DNA of 52,126 nt from NCBI GenBank assembly GCA_001818655.1, contig MHLC01000007.1, forward strand, positions 1-52,126. Reading direction: 5' to 3'. Shown here one piece after another: positions 3,750 to 33,698 of this stretch. Source of the DNA: Candidatus Liptonbacteria bacterium RIFCSPLOWO2_01_FULL_56_20 (GTDB lineage Bacteria > Patescibacteriota > Minisyncoccia > UBA6257 > 2-01-FULL-56-20). A program made the translations under genes and the position numbers. Positions within the stretch are counted from its first letter, which is position 1. Every line of letters begins with the position of its first letter. The notes under the pieces are model-generated. The model searched no databases, was not told where the DNA came from, and saw only the letters and a list, made by a program, of their open reading frames with translations.

Positions 3750-4130
3750 TTACCAGACATCAAAAAGATATTCGCCTCCGACTTTCTTGGTTCTCGCCTC
3801 GCGGTTGCTCATCACGCCTTCCGGAGTCGAAAGAACGGCGATCCCGCGCCGCCCGCGGCCCATTTGAAGATCGCGGTAGCCGACATAGATGCGCCGGCTG
3901 GGCTTGCTCACGATCTTAAAATCGGAGAGCGCAGGACGGTTATTGGCGTATCGCAGTTTCAACTCCAGCACGGTCCGCTTCCCGGCCGGCTTTTTCTGCG
4001 CGTCCTGAAGATAGCCGGCGTCAACGAGCAGCTTCGCAACAGAAAAATCCAGCTTCGAAAGCGGGGCGTGGAGGACTTCTTTTCTTGCACGCTCCGCGTT
4101 TTTGATTTTTACAAGAAGATCGTAGTACAT
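3750..4130 (-). CDS. rpsH: 30S ribosomal protein uS8
   Basis: 126 aa, IKNAERARK... N-terminus; operon position. Confidence 0.95.
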   Translation of the reverse strand: MYYDLLVKIKNAERARKEVLHAPLSKLDFSVAKLLVDAGYLQDAQKKPAGKRTVLELKLRYANNRPALSDFKIVSKPSRRIYVGYRDLQMGRGRRGIAVLSTPEGVMSNREARTKKVGGEYLFDVW

Positions 4131-9156: not shown

Positions 9157-9803
9157 GGTTTCCGGATCGCGTAGTGGCGGCGGATAAGAGGAACCGCCCT
9201 CTGGTCGATCAGGATGTGCTTGTACGTCAAAAGCTCTTCGGCGTTCAGGGATCCCGGGTGGAGGGCGCGTACCGCGGGCAGATTGGCGGCTGCGCGAAAA
9301 AGATCCTTGTTCTCTTCGTTCGGAACGAGGAGCGTACTCGCGATCGGACTGCGTTTTGACGAGCCGAAGAAGGTACGCAGTTTTTCCGCCAGTTGTTTGG
9401 TCTTGGGAAGGGCCGTGAGGCTGTTGATGACCCTTACCTCGCCGTCTTCCATTTTCTTGGAGAGGACGCTTGCGAGCGCGAGGCGGCGCATTTTCTTGTT
9501 GATCTTTTGCGAGTAGTCGCGGCTCTCTTCCGGCCCGTGCGTCTTGCCGCCGCCTGCCCAAAGAGGCGAGCGGATCGAGCCGTGTCGCGCGCGGCCGGTC
9601 CCCTTTTGGCGCCATGGCTTTCTGCCGCCTCCGCGCACTTCTGCGCGGGTCTTCACGCGGGCCCACGGCCGCCTGCGGTTCGCCTGTAGAGCAAGCACGA
9701 CCTGCTTTACCAAACGCGGCTTCCAGGGCGCACCGAAAATCTCCTCGGGCACCTCGGTATCGCCCACTTTTTTATTCGCAAAATCGTACAGATCTACTTT
9801 CAT
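9153..9803 (-). CDS. rplD: 50S ribosomal protein uL4
   Basis: Start trimmed to ATG 9803 (MKVDLYDFANKKVG...). GGGRKPWRQKGTGRARHGS motif. Confidence 0.9.
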   Translation of the reverse strand: MKVDLYDFANKKVGDTEVPEEIFGAPWKPRLVKQVVLALQANRRRPWARVKTRAEVRGGGRKPWRQKGTGRARHGSIRSPLWAGGGKTHGPEESRDYSQKINKKMRRLALASVLSKKMEDGEVRVINSLTALPKTKQLAEKLRTFFGSSKRSPIASTLLVPNEENKDLFRAAANLPAVRALHPGSLNAEELLTYKHILIDQRAVPLIRRHYAIRKP

Positions 9804-14299: not shown

Positions 14300-14314
14300 G
14301 GGATGTTAACTTGT

Positions 14315-14582
14315 GGCGCAGACCCCTCCTTTCCGCTACCGCTCAAGCTCCCCGGCGAGAGCTTTCGCTGACGATTCGGCCTCGCTCGCTCCGCCTTTTG
14401 GTTTACGGGAAGCTGTCGGAGGCGTCAAAAGCTCGGCCTCCGATCGCGATCGGAGTTTTGACGCCGAGATGCAGGCGGCGGTTCGCCGCAGGAGCGAACC
14501 GAACGCCGGTTCCCGGAAGCCAGAAGGCGGAGCATCGCACCCGCTCGGCCTCATAGCCGCGCGGGGAAAAGGGGTCTGCGTC
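14315..14582 (-). repeat. long-range inverted repeat (arms 14315-14336 and 14561-14582) enclosing copy A2
   Basis: GGCGCAGACCCCTCCTTTCCGC versus the reverse complement of GCGGGGAAAAGGGGTCTGCGTC. About 17-18 of 22 positions pair. Three of the four non-Watson-Crick positions are G:U only in the minus (mRNA) sense. Confidence 0.5.
14388..14533 (+). repeat. family-A palindromic element, copy A2
   Basis: Outer stem GCTCCGCCTTTTGGTTTACGGGAA / TTCCCGGAAGCCAGAAGGCGGAGC. Hairpins GGCGTCAAAA...TTTTGACGCC (with CTCCGATCG/CGATCGGAG inside) and GGTTCGC...GCGAACC. Shares conserved blocks with A1 and A3. Confidence 0.75.
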
Positions 14583-14607
14583 AGCTCTGCCATATCCATT
14601 CCAGATC

Positions 14608-15075
14608 TCATTGCGCGAAGTGGGCGAAAGCTCGGTTGGATTCAGCCATTCGGTGCGTATCCTGCTTTTTCTTGATGGCCGCGCCCTCGTTCTTTGATGC
14701 GGCGATGAGTTCGTCGGCGAGCTTGGCTGCCATGGGCTTCCCTTTCTTCGCGCGGGCCGCATTGATGAGCCAGCGGCTTCCCAAGATGAACCGCCGCTCC
14801 GGCCTGACCTCGCGCGGCACCTGATAGTTCGCGCCTCCGATCCGCCGCGAAGCGACTTCGAGCATCGGCGAAACGTTCTGGAGCGCTTTTTCGAAAACCG
14901 CAAGCGGGCTCTGCTTGGTCTCTTTTTCCACGCGCGCAAGCGCGTCATAGACAACCCGTTCGGCAATGGATTTCTTGCCGTCCCGCATCACGTAATTAAT
15001 GAAACGGCCGAGATCTATACGGCTGTGCTGCGGGTCTGGCTCGTGGTACTTTTTGTATACGCGCTTTTTTCTCAT
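14608..15075 (-). CDS. rpsG: 30S ribosomal protein uS7
   Basis: 155 aa, ...GANYQVPREVRPERR...NRAFAHF. Confidence 0.95.
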   Translation of the reverse strand: MRKKRVYKKYHEPDPQHSRIDLGRFINYVMRDGKKSIAERVVYDALARVEKETKQSPLAVFEKALQNVSPMLEVASRRIGGANYQVPREVRPERRFILGSRWLINAARAKKGKPMAAKLADELIAASKNEGAAIKKKQDTHRMAESNRAFAHFAQ

Positions 15076-15079
15076 AGTA

Positions 15080-15118
15080 TTATGCCTTAGGACTTTTCGC
15101 GCCGTATTTTGACCTCTG
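15080..15118 (-). pseudogene. relic duplicate of the rpsL 3' end ([12 protein letters not shown]-stop)
   Basis: CAGAGGTCAAAATACGGCGCGAAAAGTCCTAAGGCATAA lies 4 nt upstream of the rpsG ATG. It is a diverged copy of the working rpsL end at 15204-15245 and shares an 11-nt perfect core, CAGAGGTCAAA. Confidence 0.6.
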
Positions 15119-15192
15119 TCCCGACGCTCCGCCTGCTCCGACCGTAGCGTCGGAGATCGGGACTCCGACCGCTACGAAACGGCGCGTCGGAG
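15119..15192 (+). repeat. family-B hairpin element, copy B1 (74 nt)
   Basis: TCCCGACGC...GCGTCGGAG outer stem. Alternating CTCCGAC/GTCGGAG arms and a CGGGACTCCGA core, shared with 31056-31127. Confidence 0.65.
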
Positions 15193-15203
15193 CTGCCGCT
15201 TTA

Positions 15204-15620
15204 TTATTGTATCTTTGGTTTCTTTGCTCCATACTTTGACCTCTGCTGTTTCCTCCCTTCAACCCCCGTCGTGTCAAGAACGCCCCGCACCACGTGGTAA
15301 CGGACGCCCGGCAGGTCTTTTACGCGCCCGCCGCGGATTACCACGATCGAGTGCTCCTGGAGGGCATGCCCTTCGCCAGGGATGTATGCGGTGACTTCCA
15401 TGCCGTTCGTGAGCCGCACGCGACATACTTTTCTGATGGCCGAGTTCGGCTTCTTGGGGGTCGTGGTGAACACCTTGAGGCACACGCCCCTCTTGAAAGG
15501 CGAGGAAGAATCAACCGGACGGTTCTTCAGGGTATTAAAATAGTACGCCAATGCGGGCGATTTGGTTTTCGCTTTCGCAGACGTCCTTCCCCGCTTTACC
15601 AACTGACGAAGAGTAGGCAT
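15204..15620 (-). CDS. rpsL: 30S ribosomal protein uS12
   Basis: [21 protein letters not shown]...[13 protein letters not shown]. Carries about 12 extra aa near the N-terminus relative to E. coli S12. Confidence 0.95.
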
Positions 15621-16413: not shown

Positions 16414-16485
16414 GCCCCTGTAGTGAAATGGATATCACGCGACGCTTCGGACGTCGTATTCCGGGTTCGAATCCTGGCGGGGGCG
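16414..16485 (+). tRNA. tRNA-Arg (anticodon UCG)
   Basis: Hand-folded cloverleaf: acceptor GCCCCTG/CGGGGGC, D stem GTGA/TCAC, anticodon stem CGACG/CGTCG with loop CTTCGGA, T arm CCGGG-TTCGAAT-CCTGG. CCA is not encoded. Confidence 0.9.
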
Positions 16486-16545
16486 CAATGCCAAAACGGG
16501 TTCCCGCTCCAAACACGTTGGAGCGAGGCTCGCCCTATCGGGCGG

Positions 16546-16564
16546 CGAATCCTGGCGGGGGCGC
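16546..16564 (+). repeat. exact 19-nt duplicate of the tRNA-Arg 3' end (T-loop to discriminator)
   Basis: CGAATCCTGGCGGGGGCGC occurs at 16468-16486 and again at 16546-16564. The copies are separated by a 59-nt hairpin-rich insert. Confidence 0.8.
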
Positions 16565-16626
16565 CGTGAACCGCGCGCGTCATATGCGCCTTTTGATGCA
16601 GACAAGGGCGACCCGCCCTGCGTAAC

Positions 16627-16666
16627 GATAAAAGCAAAACGGGCGCTATGTTGCTCGCGCCCGTTT
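16627..16666 (-). terminator. intrinsic terminator of the small ORF
   Basis: Minus strand: AAACGGGCGC-10 nt-GCGCCCGTTT followed by TGCTTTTAT. Confidence 0.6.
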
Positions 16667-16773
16667 CTTGATGGAATGAAGCTCGCTCAGCGCCTGTGCC
16701 GCACGAACGGGCGCGATACTGCTTACTCCCGTTTCTTGGTGGGACGGCGCTCGCGGAGCGCCTGTGCCGCACG
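16638..16773 (-). repeat. diverged tandem duplication (2 x 68 nt, about 80 % identity) covering the ORF 3' end and terminator
   Basis: Units 16638-16705 and 16706-16773 align base for base (AACGGGCGC...CCCGTTTCTTG...GCTCGC..AGCGCCTGTGCCGCACG). Confidence 0.7.
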
Positions 16774-29669: not shown

Positions 29670-31955
29670 ATGCCCGACCTCGGCCCGCGCTACGAGCACA
29701 AAGAGATCGAGGAGAAAATTTATCGGCTTTGGGAACGGTCCGGGTATTTTAACCCGGATAATTTGCCTGACGCGCACAAACGCAAGCCCTATTGCATCAT
29801 AATGCCGCCGCCGAACGCGAACGGCCCGCTTCATATCGGCCACGCGCTTTTCGTAACCTTAGAAGACATTATGATCCGCTACTCGAGGATGCGCGGCAAG
29901 CGCACGCTCTGGCTGCCTGGCGCAGACCACGCCGGATTTGAAACCCAGGTGGTCTTTGACGGGAAACTGGAAAAAGAGGGGCGGAATCGCTTTACCATGA
30001 ACCGCGATGCGCTGTGGAAAGAAATGTGGGATTTTACGCAAGAGAATAAAAAGACTATGGAAGCGCAGCTGCGCAAGCTCGGCGCGTCCTGCGATTGGTC
30101 ACGGGAAGTGTTCACCCTGGAGCCGAGGGTGGTCGAGCAGGTGTATGCGACGTTCAAGAAAATGCACGACGACGGCCTCGTGTACCGCGATCTGCGCGTG
30201 GTGAACTGGTGCCCAAAACACAGAACCGCACTTTCCGATTTGGAAGTGAAATATGTGGAGAAAACCGACCCGCTCTACTACATCAAGTACGGGCCGCTCA
30301 CCTTGGCCACGGTCCGGCCGGAAACCAAGTTCGGCGACACCGCGCTCGCCGTAAATCCAAAAGACAAGCGTTATCAGAAATACGTCGGAAAAACCATAGA
30401 GGCGAAAGGGGTCTTGGGTCTGCTCACGTTCAAGGTGATCGCGGACGAAGCAGTAGACCCGCATTTTGGCACGGGCGTGGTCAAGGTCACTCCGGCGCAC
30501 GACCAAGCCGACTACGAGATCTGGCAACGGCACAAGAACGAGATCCCGGGTCCGAAAACCATCATCGGCGAGGACGGCCGGCTTACGGACGAAACCGGGA
30601 AGTTCAAAAGACTAAAAGTCGCTGAGGCGCGGGCGCGCGTCGCAGAAGCGATACAGAAGATCGGCATACTGGAGAAAGTTGACCCGAACTACGTCCACCA
30701 AGTCGCGACGTGCTATAAATGCGGCTCTACCTTGGAACCCTTGCCAAAACCGCAGTGGTTCGTAAAGATGCAGCCGCTCGCAAAAAAAGCGATCGCCGCT
30801 GCGCAAAAAATCAAATTCTTCCCATCGCACTCCAAAAAGGTCTACCTCCACTGGCTAAAAAACATCCGCGACTGGAACATTTCCCGGCAAATCGTCTGGG
30901 GCATACGCATCCCGGCATGGTTTAGGAGGAACGAGATCGCGATCAGCGCGGAGAGTCCTGGACCCGGCTGGCAGCAAGACCCCGACGTGTTTGACACTTG
31001 GTTCTCGTCCGGGCAGTGGCCCTTCATTGCTTTGGGCTTTAAAGAAGGTGGCAAATCCCGACGCAAGGTCGGGACTCCGATCCCGACGCCGACTCCGGGT
31101 CGGGACGTCGGCGCCGAAGCGTCGGAGGATTATAAAACCTTTTACCCGACCGACGTGATGGAAACCGGCTACGATATCCTGTTTTTCTGGGTGACACGGA
31201 TGGTCATGTTCGGCCTCTACCGCACCGGGAAAGTCCCGTTCAAGGCAGTATATCTCCACGGCTTGGTGCGCGATAAAGACCGGCAGAAAATGTCCAAATC
31301 AAAAGGCAACGTGATCGACCCCCTTGGCGTTGCCGATACCTACGGCACGGATGCAGTGCGGATGGCGCTCGTCGCCGGCAACACTCCCGGAAAAGATACT
31401 GCTATTTCCGAGGACAAAATCCGGGCGTATAGGAATTTCGCGACCAAGGTCTGGAATATCGCGCGATTTATCCTTATGCATAAGCCCGGCCGGGCGGTAA
31501 AGCCAGTCCTCTCTGCCGCCGACCGCACGCATATTGCCCACGCGCAAAAGGTAAAATCCCAGGTCGCGAAGCATATAGAAAAATTCGAATTTCACCTCGC
31601 GGCAGAAAAAACCTACCACTACATCTGGCATACGTTTGCGGACAAGATCATAGAGGAATACAAGCCGCGACTTAGAGCCGCAGCAAGCCCTGAGGAAGCT
31701 CTCGGAGTCGCGCCGGGCTTGGTCTCCGAAGGAGCCGGCGCGCCGAGAGCGCAGGCGGTCGGCGGCCGCCGGAGCCACCGAACCGCCGGTTCCGAAGAGC
31801 TTGCTGCGGCGGAAAATCAAGCAGCTGCTTACCATACCCTGGAAACGATTCTTATAGAATGCCTCACCATGCTCCACCCGTTCATGCCGTTCATCACCGA
31901 AGAGATCTTCCGCAACCTCCGCCCCCGCTCTCTTCTTATGGTTCAGCCGTGGTGA
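29670..31955 (+). CDS. valS: valyl-tRNA synthetase (short form)
   Basis: PPPNANGPLHIGHAL (HIGH), WLPGADHAGFETQ (ValRS-type), KMSKSKGN. 761 aa including two inserted repeat-encoded segments. Confidence 0.88.
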   Translation: MPDLGPRYEHKEIEEKIYRLWERSGYFNPDNLPDAHKRKPYCIIMPPPNANGPLHIGHALFVTLEDIMIRYSRMRGKRTLWLPGADHAGFETQVVFDGKLEKEGRNRFTMNRDALWKEMWDFTQENKKTMEAQLRKLGASCDWSREVFTLEPRVVEQVYATFKKMHDDGLVYRDLRVVNWCPKHRTALSDLEVKYVEKTDPLYYIKYGPLTLATVRPETKFGDTALAVNPKDKRYQKYVGKTIEAKGVLGLLTFKVIADEAVDPHFGTGVVKVTPAHDQADYEIWQRHKNEIPGPKTIIGEDGRLTDETGKFKRLKVAEARARVAEAIQKIGILEKVDPNYVHQVATCYKCGSTLEPLPKPQWFVKMQPLAKKAIAAAQKIKFFPSHSKKVYLHWLKNIRDWNISRQIVWGIRIPAWFRRNEIAISAESPGPGWQQDPDVFDTWFSSGQWPFIALGFKEGGKSRRKVGTPIPTPTPGRDVGAEASEDYKTFYPTDVMETGYDILFFWVTRMVMFGLYRTGKVPFKAVYLHGLVRDKDRQKMSKSKGNVIDPLGVADTYGTDAVRMALVAGNTPGKDTAISEDKIRAYRNFATKVWNIARFILMHKPGRAVKPVLSAADRTHIAHAQKVKSQVAKHIEKFEFHLAAEKTYHYIWHTFADKIIEEYKPRLRAAASPEEALGVAPGLVSEGAGAPRAQAVGGRRSHRTAGSEELAAAENQAAAYHTLETILIECLTMLHPFMPFITEEIFRNLRPRSLLMVQPW
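31056..31127 (+). repeat. family-B hairpin element, copy B2: 72 nt, codon-aligned inside valS
   Basis: TCCCGACGC...GCGTCGGAG with internal GTCGGGA/TCCCGAC arms and the CGGGACTCCGA core. Encodes SRRKVGTPIPTPTPGRDVGAEASE. Confidence 0.7.
31677..31810 (+). repeat. family-A palindromic element, copy A3: about 135 nt in-frame inside valS
   Basis: Outer stem GCCGCAGCAAGC/GCTTGCTGCGGC. Conserved blocks GAAGCTCTCGGAG, GCTTGG, GCCGAGAGCGCAGGCGGTC, GGAGCC, GAACCGCCGGTTCC. Encodes AAASPEEALGVAPGLVSEGAGAPRAQAVGGRRSHRTAGSEELAAA. Confidence 0.75.
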
Positions 31956-33540: not shown

Positions 33541-33698
33541 CCAAAAACCCCGACGCGCGTCGGGGGTCTGTAAGCAAGGGCCCTGCCTCGATATCCCGGC
33601 TTTATACCAGGTGGGTGGACTCAATTATAGCCCGCAGGCTAAAACGATATTGTCCTCCCTTTTAAAAGTTGTTTGATCCGAAATCGTAGGCAGGACCA
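33541..33698 (-). ncRNA. candidate structured sRNA of about 156 nt (long closing helix, large central bubble, internal stem, apical hairpin, own terminator); 6S-like architecture, identity unknown
   Basis: Minus strand: closing helix GGUCCUGCCUACGAUUUCGG / CCGGGAUAUCGAGGCAGGGCC, with a U:G pair only in this sense. Internal loop of 18 versus 13 nt. Stem GGGAGGAC/GUCCACCC. Apical hairpin UAGCC-UGCG-GGCUA. Then CCCCGAC-GCGC-GUCGGGG followed by UUUUU. Confidence 0.4.

Follow-up and report, generated by a model that had tools for sequence, protein, structure and literature searches.

A dispersed double-hairpin repeat lies in frame in the valyl-tRNA synthetase gene of a Candidatus Liptonbacteria genome and has relatives in Patescibacteria, Omnitrophota and Planctomycetota

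Rickettsia palindromic elements (RPEs), reportedly described by Ogata et al. in 2000, are short hairpin-forming dispersed repeats that occur both between genes and in frame within essential protein genes, have no coding capacity of their own, and are translated into surface segments without destroying the fold of the host protein. Other small repeats with related properties include the repetitive extragenic palindromic (REP) sequences with their mosaic (BIME) and REPIN forms, which are short, G+C-rich, often paired, non-autonomous hairpins served by REP-associated (RAYT) Y1 transposases; miniature inverted-repeat transposable elements (MITEs) such as Correia of Neisseria and Nezha of cyanobacteria; and the double-hairpin elements and GC clusters of fungal mitochondria. 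Here we analyse a 52,126-nucleotide stretch (hereafter the window; positions 1 to 52,126 of contig MHLC01000007.1, assembly GCA_001818655.1) of Candidatus Liptonbacteria bacterium RIFCSPLOWO2_01_FULL_56_20, in which a 72-nt double hairpin occupies 24 codons of valS, the gene for valyl-tRNA synthetase (ValRS). It shares the listed features of RPEs, the translated surface segment being in this case a prediction. We consider it probable that the insert is one copy of a dispersed non-autonomous DNA repeat that is mobilised in trans and is translated and tolerated in a ValRS loop.

The features of the host gene and of the insert are as follows:

29670-31955, + strand: valS, valine--tRNA ligase of 761 aa, the host of the element (open reading frame (ORF); homologs carry PF00133, PF08264 and PF09334)
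31056-31127, + strand (sense): double-hairpin repeat ("family B"), 72 nt, codons 463-486, phase 0/0, with bounds confirmed by a covariance model
31056-31074, + strand: hairpin P1 (TCCCGAC / GCAAG loop / GTCGGGA), from the fold; its stem is invariant in 117 public copies
31075-31127, + strand: hairpin P2 (CTCCGAT ... GTCGGAG), from the fold, enclosing a nested TCCCGAC...GTCGGGA hairpin (31081-31105)

The valS product matches Thermus thermophilus ValRS (1GAX) with E = 1.9e-153, and its homologs are ValRS proteins of Patescibacteria. The exact protein and four near-identical variants are recorded under Candidatus Liptonbacteria bacterium RIFCSPHIGHO2_01_FULL_56_18b and Parcubacteria GW2011_GWB1_56_8, and the best non-self matches are 69-71% identical. 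An earlier note on this DNA had described the insertion as codon-exact, and this is what we find: nucleotides 31056-31127 (TCCCGACGCAAGGTCGGGACTCCGATCCCGACGCCGACTCCGGGTCGGGACGTCGGCGCCGAAGCGTCGGAG) begin and end in phase 0 and encode residues 463-486 (SRRKVGTPIPTPTPGRDVGAEASE) in 24 codons without a stop. The peptides encoded by the insert region, as derived from the sequence, include VGTPIPTPTPGR and DVGAEASEDYK. The insert folds into two adjacent hairpins (-42.3 kcal/mol, z = -3.0) and takes rank 7 for GC-corrected stability among approximately 6500 sliding 80-nt windows covering the whole window; a second segment of valS takes rank 9 in the same ranking.

Relatives of the protein confirm that these residues are additional. 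In an alignment of the 120 best ValRS homologs, the loop from the WP of the DTWFSSxxWP motif to [FY]YPT spans 13-14 residues in 70 of 119 close homologs versus 39 residues in the window ValRS. A phmmer alignment with 1GAX breaks at query residues 459|483, where both sides meet at T. thermophilus residue 471 and no counterpart of the insert exists; it breaks again at 671|718, the site of a second in-frame repeat discussed below. An AlphaFold2 model of the window ValRS (66 homologs) has a mean pLDDT (predicted local distance difference test score) of 88.9, with values below 50 only at residues 462-482 and 682-702, which correspond to the two inserts, so the 24-residue insert is predicted to form a disordered, flexible surface loop. 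The 90% cluster has five members, taken from different assemblies; each is 761 aa long and carries the same 24 residues. These five strains are more than 99% identical overall, and three of the four amino-acid polymorphisms among them fall in or beside the two inserts. The insert is not an assembly artefact, because contigs of the window's own strain from several sequencing runs carry it without a single difference; the five assemblies with the same insert likewise rule this out. Contig joints that skipped the insert proved to be ValRS genes of other species rather than an empty allele.

The same family has a second copy in the window:

15119-15192, + strand, antisense to the operon: second copy of family B (covariance model 42.6 bits, E = 1.8e-9)

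This copy lies in the 128-nt spacer between rpsL (15204-15620, - strand) and rpsG (14608-15075, - strand). The blocks TCCCGACGC, TCGGGACTCCGA and GCGTCGGAG are common to both window copies and follow one another in one order. Pairwise similarity is low (blastn E ~0.05, and a poor MAFFT alignment), and the kinship of the two is visible only as collinear blocks and structure. The pattern TCCCGA-N(7-37)-TCGGGACTCCGA-N(14-44)-TCGGAG matches these two copies alone in the window, with 0.00 matches expected from 100 shuffles. A covariance model built from 33 foreign copies, leaving out those of the window, recovered 31056-31127 with 39.8 bits (E = 9.4e-9), across all 50 model positions and with exact bounds. 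The two copies are the only hits in the window at E < 1e-8, and everything else scores 13 bits or less. The model also detected a copy (9201-9259, 47.6 bits) in locus L003, which had been retrieved through ValRS homology and not through the pattern, and approximately eleven further copies in 750 kb of ascertained loci. The valS and rps-spacer segments thus belong to one conserved family with exact boundaries, as the earlier note had proposed from their shared termini, which are the true ends of the family.

The consensus of 117 public copies is TCCCGACG-loop-GTCGGGACTCCGAC-loop-CGTCGGAG, in which the near-invariant stem TCCCGAC/GTCGGGA is followed directly by CTCCGAC/GTCGGAG and the loops vary freely. 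Copies are 45-90 nt long. Nested xCCGACG..CGTCGGx hairpins are frequent within the loops, which fold better than their own shuffles (mean z of -2.5 and -2.7). Among 33 short copies, the inner P2 helix shows covariation at six of six pairs with 50 double changes, a result reached by none of 500 shuffles. Conservation across the 117 copies extends to positions that the search pattern left free: 95% at C7, 94% at G8, 94% at the G that precedes the core and 87% at the C that follows it, with 93% and 90% for the two bases (CG) ahead of the closing TCGGAG. The valS copy has the family's 5' terminus (TCCCGACG) at 31056-31063 and its 3' terminus (CGTCGGAG) at 31120-31127. Its junction at 31068-31081 (GTCGGGACTCCGAT) corresponds to GTCGGGACTCCGAC, with no spacer between the helices and with a final T in place of C that recurs in 13 of the 117 copies.

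A search of one genome per species (596 Gb) with the structural pattern returned at least 120 loci, among which the window's own species does not appear, compared with roughly 4-16 expected by chance according to our own estimate. The matches, spread over more than a hundred genomes, come mainly from the ultrasmall groundwater bacteria of the Patescibacteria (Doudna-, Sacchari-, Paceibacterota, Lipton-, Jorgensen-, Giovannoni-, Kaiser-, Taylor-, Vogel-, Uhr-, Berkel- and Sungiibacteria), Omnitrophota and Planctomycetota, and several genomes hold four to seven loci each. The family is therefore specific neither to this genome nor to the candidate phyla radiation (CPR), the group for which the earlier note had known of no such description. 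As to its being undescribed, no Rfam model matches the element at the gathering threshold (only sub-threshold noise up to E 10), and a literature search found no published description, although the collection searched was incomplete and a prior description is possible.

Presence inside genes is a habit of the family. Long ORFs hold 27 of the 126 pattern matches deep in their interior. The lengths of 21 of these 27 are divisible by three compared with 25 of 52 copies without a long ORF (Fisher p = 0.0098), a bias towards multiples of three. When at least 60 aa of native ORF are demanded on either side, 29 copies qualify. No more than six copies would require excision for a frame to open, and these look like copies at gene ends. 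Hosts confirmed by Pfam are AlaRS, AspRS, GatB, FtsK, a clamp-loader subunit, CarA, dihydroorotate dehydrogenase (PyrD), ATP synthase gamma, a P-type ATPase and beta-CASP nucleases. In two Saccharibacteria loci (L006 and L088), the copy occupies the same protein position of a beta-CASP (RNase J-like) gene, ..[insert]SK.[IV]VFSGDLGN, which suggests that the insertion is old and shared or that the site is a second hot spot. Copies within genes occur in both orientations, and the commonest reading yields [A/T]PT..VGVPT..VG peptides. By our own reading of the sequence, the conserved stems are free of stop codons in all six frames. The in-frame pattern is the one expected from purifying selection on translated insertions, and not the one expected from an element removed from RNA. 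In keeping with the parallel to RPEs drawn in the earlier note, the family occurs in intact ORFs of many other housekeeping genes.

Clues to the mechanism come from copies that lie beside tRNA genes and rpsL. Nineteen of 124 copies are within 150 nt of a tRNA gene (p = 3e-12 against a nominal 50 tRNAs per Mb). Twelve of the tRNA-side copies, from different phyla and next to different tRNAs, share one layout: a partial tRNA duplicate interrupted by the element, a short spacer, and an intact tRNA 24-62 nt downstream of the copy. The duplicated part comprises the leader and the 5' part of the tRNA, with the element in the D-stem, D-loop or anticodon loop (loci L011, L021, L028, L030, L049, L054, L059, L072, L078, L079, L089 and L103). 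The copy beside rpsL in the window is flanked by a comparable duplication of 44 nt, whose two arms are 73% identical:

15075-15118, - strand: decayed duplicate of the 3' end of rpsL, lying between the rpsG start and the element (direct repeat D14)
15202-15245, - strand: functional rpsL 3' end, the other arm of the flanking duplication (direct repeat D14)

The same rpsL duplication surrounds a copy at the same operon position in the Saccharibacteria locus L047 (flanks at 3978-4029). Where a copy strikes a gene end or a tRNA, as at rpsL in the window and in L047 and in the twelve tRNA cases, the partial duplication keeps an intact gene. Flanking duplications are rare across the family, range from 7 to 73 nt, and are absent at the valS copy. 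The termini TCCCGACG and CGTCGGAG are complementary at six of eight positions by our own reading. Insertion into the loops of pre-existing hairpins was considered as a general rule and rejected, as flanking inverted repeats were found at 10% of copies versus 6%.

The loop that holds the valS copy is an insertion hot spot in relatives, where unrelated repeat DNA occupies the same place. In L003, the ValRS loop contains a different, nested dispersed palindrome with three further copies within 17 kb, one of them inside tsaD. This tsaD (1636-2928) encodes 430 aa versus 347 aa in L002, and it contains in-frame copies of both repeats inserted in the L003 ValRS (1964-2043 and 2572-2604). Three other orthologs have heptanucleotide tandem arrays in the loop (L136 5453-5527, L137 2275-2394 and L138 2578-2664; orthologs P0017, P0021 and P0012). 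The array units are (GGGTCAW)n, (RGAGTCA)n and (AGGTCAA)n; being seven bases long, they are read in all three frames and give K/S/R-rich inserts. Similar arrays occur at three more places in L136, one of them within the same gene, and several double-hairpin copies of Omnitrophota are flanked on both sides by AGGTCAC heptamers. Homologs P0024 and P0038 have a domain-like insert of 100-130 residues in the same loop. Approximately 40% of the listed close ValRS homologs are fused to a PF00300 histidine-phosphatase domain, and many homologs are 850-1090 aa long.

A second repeat family ("family A") is also in frame in valS and has two further copies in the window:

31683-31820 (core 31691-31794), + strand: family A in valS, residues 672-717, anticodon-binding domain (families D3/D8/D15; alignment)
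495-603, + strand: family A, intergenic copy (alignment with the valS copy)
14405-14513, + strand: family A, copy between rpsG and fusA, enclosed by a larger palindrome (alignment with the valS copy)

Family A is approximately 110 nt long. Its ValRS segment is missing from most orthologs and from 1GAX, and two orthologs have family A at the same site. Twelve metagenome contigs (38-58% G+C) carry relatives with compensating stems and the conserved blocks GGAAGCU..UCGGAG..GCUUGG..CCGAGA.GCAGGCGG..CGCUGGAGC..AACGCCGGUUCC. No Rfam family matches family A at the gathering threshold. The rpsG-fusA spacer (14300-14607; approximately 300 nt) forms a nested palindrome whose outer arms lie near 14315-14333 and 14563-14583; its part at 14325-14393 resembles the ValRS insert of the ortholog locus L002 with 81% identity.

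Because orthologs lack the insert, the family tends to sit in frame and the segment is predicted to be disordered, we arrive at the following scenario. Insertion would have taken place at the DNA level, into the valS surface loop that leads from the DTWFSSxxWP motif to the FYPT strand, and the copy would have survived because it added exactly 24 codons free of stops. We infer that the copy passes with the rest of valS into mRNA and protein, where it forms a flexible, disordered loop that is tolerated by ValRS and presumably neutral. Because the element has no gene of its own, a trans-acting activity would be needed to copy it, most plausibly by recognising the conserved stems. Where the product is intolerant of insertion, as for tRNAs and rpsL, only events coupled to a rescuing duplication would survive; where it accommodates 24 extra residues in a surface loop, as in ValRS, the copy would simply be translated. 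The earlier note had left it between a repeat that is tolerated as coding sequence and one that is maintained. The predicted disorder and the polymorphisms in or beside the inserts favour the former; maintenance as something useful to ValRS finds no support, the segment being predicted as disordered and missing from relatives.

Several observations weigh against this account. The identity of the stems across phyla may reflect selection for function rather than recent spread, and the copies that trained the covariance model were chosen by a pattern derived from the window, so that the pattern positions are conserved by construction. No insert-free allele was found among the five strains and the own-strain contigs, which gives no sign of recent mobility in this species. 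ORF clusters across 120 loci revealed no transposase, integrase or reverse transcriptase recurring beside the copies; the recurrent clusters are generic (ABC, TPR and response regulator proteins) or housekeeping (L10/L12, AlaRS and class I aminoacyl-tRNA synthetases). There is no regular target-site duplication, abutting direct repeats being present at 8% of copies versus 0.5% in the null. The RNA available for the valS region consists of three tiny SOLiD metatranscriptomes that contain zero sequence words from the region, and no RNA run was found for a Saccharibacteria copy within a gene.

Other explanations share part of this evidence. If the element were an RNA-level intervening sequence, excised from the mRNA or bypassed by the ribosome, the cell would make a ValRS without the 24 residues. 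The two stems could stack end to end and bring the flanks together, copies also lie within tRNA-like sequence, and the stop-free stems make open frames partly automatic. Excision would, however, require neither lengths in multiples of three nor an open frame, both of which copies within genes favour. The element matches none of the intron and ribozyme models of Rfam; conservation lies in the paired stems and not in the loops or junctions as in ribozymes, and the tRNA cases are dead partial duplicates beside an intact tRNA rather than interrupted working genes. We regard removal from RNA as highly unlikely, and an intein can be dismissed as 24 residues are too few. It is unlikely that the loop or its mRNA hairpins have been exapted for ValRS or its expression, through a protein contact, mRNA stability or translational pausing, and are kept by host selection. 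The same insert in five strains, an insert that matches the family consensus at all but two checked positions and so is not decayed, and stems conserved across phyla would all fit such a role. Yet strains so similar overall make insert identity uninformative, the segment is predicted to be disordered, the closest orthologs (69-71% identity) have no insert or a different one, and the family is found in either orientation and in hosts of every kind.

Two further explanations concern how the DNA arose. A low-complexity G+C-rich loop could have given rise to the insert on the spot, through slippage or template switching, with the resemblance of the insert to the rps spacer due to chance. The heptanucleotide arrays that expand locally at this hot spot in relatives and the weak blastn similarity of the window copies fit this idea. 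The pattern expectation of 0.00 in the window, the matching loci elsewhere (at least 120) with their extra conserved positions, and the covariance-model E-values of ~1e-8 to 1e-9 make it hardly credible, and we count it as refuted. Alternatively, the element may serve a cellular or mobile system as a site of recombination or recognition, as do integron attC sites and the ends of IS200/IS605, with the copies in genes as by-products. What sets this apart from a translated repeat mobilised in trans is solely the agent that moves the DNA. Several observations would suit a recognition site: conservation is confined to the stems, the termini come close to inverted repeats (by our own reading, YYCCGAC/GTCGGRR recalls paired core sites), partial target duplications accompany some copies, and enrichment near tRNA genes is strong. 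No recombinase gene recurs near the copies, though, and no cassette-like arrays were seen, and we consider this reading distinctly improbable. We retain the dispersed repeat, translated and tolerated in ValRS, as the best explanation of the 24 extra residues.

The element works like an RPE and yet falls outside RPEs, REP/REPIN sequences, classical MITEs and the introns and ribozymes of Rfam. RPEs are approximately 100-150 bp long, consist of a single long palindrome and are confined to Rickettsiales, whereas the CCGAC family is 45-90 nt long, has two tandem hairpins with invariant 7-bp stems and occurs in at least three phyla. The valS copy resembles RPEs in its in-frame presence in a gene and departs from them in length (72 nt), architecture (tandem hairpins) and host (Liptonbacteria). 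No sequence relationship to RPEs is evident, the two being set apart here without direct comparison to RPE consensus sequences. Like REP, BIME and REPIN sequences, the element is a G+C-rich paired hairpin that is presumably recognised as folded DNA by a trans-acting enzyme. REP sequences, in contrast, are extragenic with a GTAG/CTAC head and REPIN arms are inverted, whereas the CCGAC hairpins stand in tandem and approximately a quarter of copies are in ORFs. Among the protein clusters recurring near copies in the sampled loci, RAYT is absent. The family is not a REP or REPIN because it occurs inside genes and has tandem hairpins. MITEs are likewise small, non-autonomous, co-transcribed with adjacent genes and occasionally in frame, with terminal inverted repeats. 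They have the terminal repeats of a parent insertion sequence and a fixed-length target duplication, the latter lacking in the CCGAC family, and no parent insertion sequence was found for its terminal repeats. The lack of a target duplication of constant length sets the family apart from classical MITEs. The fungal mitochondrial elements share the two-hairpin architecture, are mobile, and occupy spacers, variable regions of RNA genes and occasionally coding sequence, for example in var1. They differ in being organellar, unrelated in sequence and restricted to single lineages. All matches in a literature search for "double-hairpin element" were mitochondrial.

Two other features of the window are recorded here for completeness:

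33548-33565, + strand: hairpin CCCCGAC-GCGC-GTCGGGG, 25 nt after tRNA-Pro

This hairpin, which the earlier note had linked to the family by its arm motif, does exist. With the family model it reaches no more than 11-13 bits (E = 0.07-0.26), so that its membership is not supported and its kinship is unproven. Elsewhere, the final 28 nt of tRNA-Arg (16414-16486) occur a second time at 16540-16567, and two tandem 68-nt units follow at 16638-16773 (families D1 and D2). The repeats at 16414-16773 may be the remnant of an integration site.

A wider hypothesis, which we put forward tentatively and hold to have somewhat less than an even chance of being right, is that the CCGAC double hairpin is an undescribed mobile element of Patescibacteria, Omnitrophota and Planctomycetota whose stems are read by a trans-acting enzyme and whose insertion is sometimes accompanied by a partial tandem target duplication that rescues essential genes (tRNAs and rpsL). 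Together with family A and the heptanucleotide arrays, it would then be a general source of lineage-specific loops in the housekeeping proteins of ultrasmall bacteria. Conservation of the stems at the level of single bases across phyla points to a specific recognition machinery, and the family is easily searchable with a 30-nt signature and a covariance model. For annotation, loops of this kind and the incomplete tRNA and rpsL duplicates next to copies would best be read as repeat DNA and not as lineage-specific functional domains. To our knowledge, in-frame selfish palindromes have so far been treated essentially as a Rickettsia curiosity. The family described here would represent the same outcome in a different bacterial radiation, reached through a smaller and unrelated element, and would show in concrete terms where some of the unexplained insertions come from in core proteins of the CPR such as aminoacyl-tRNA synthetases, FtsK and ATP synthase. 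Selfish hairpin DNA would thus reshape core proteins well outside Rickettsia.

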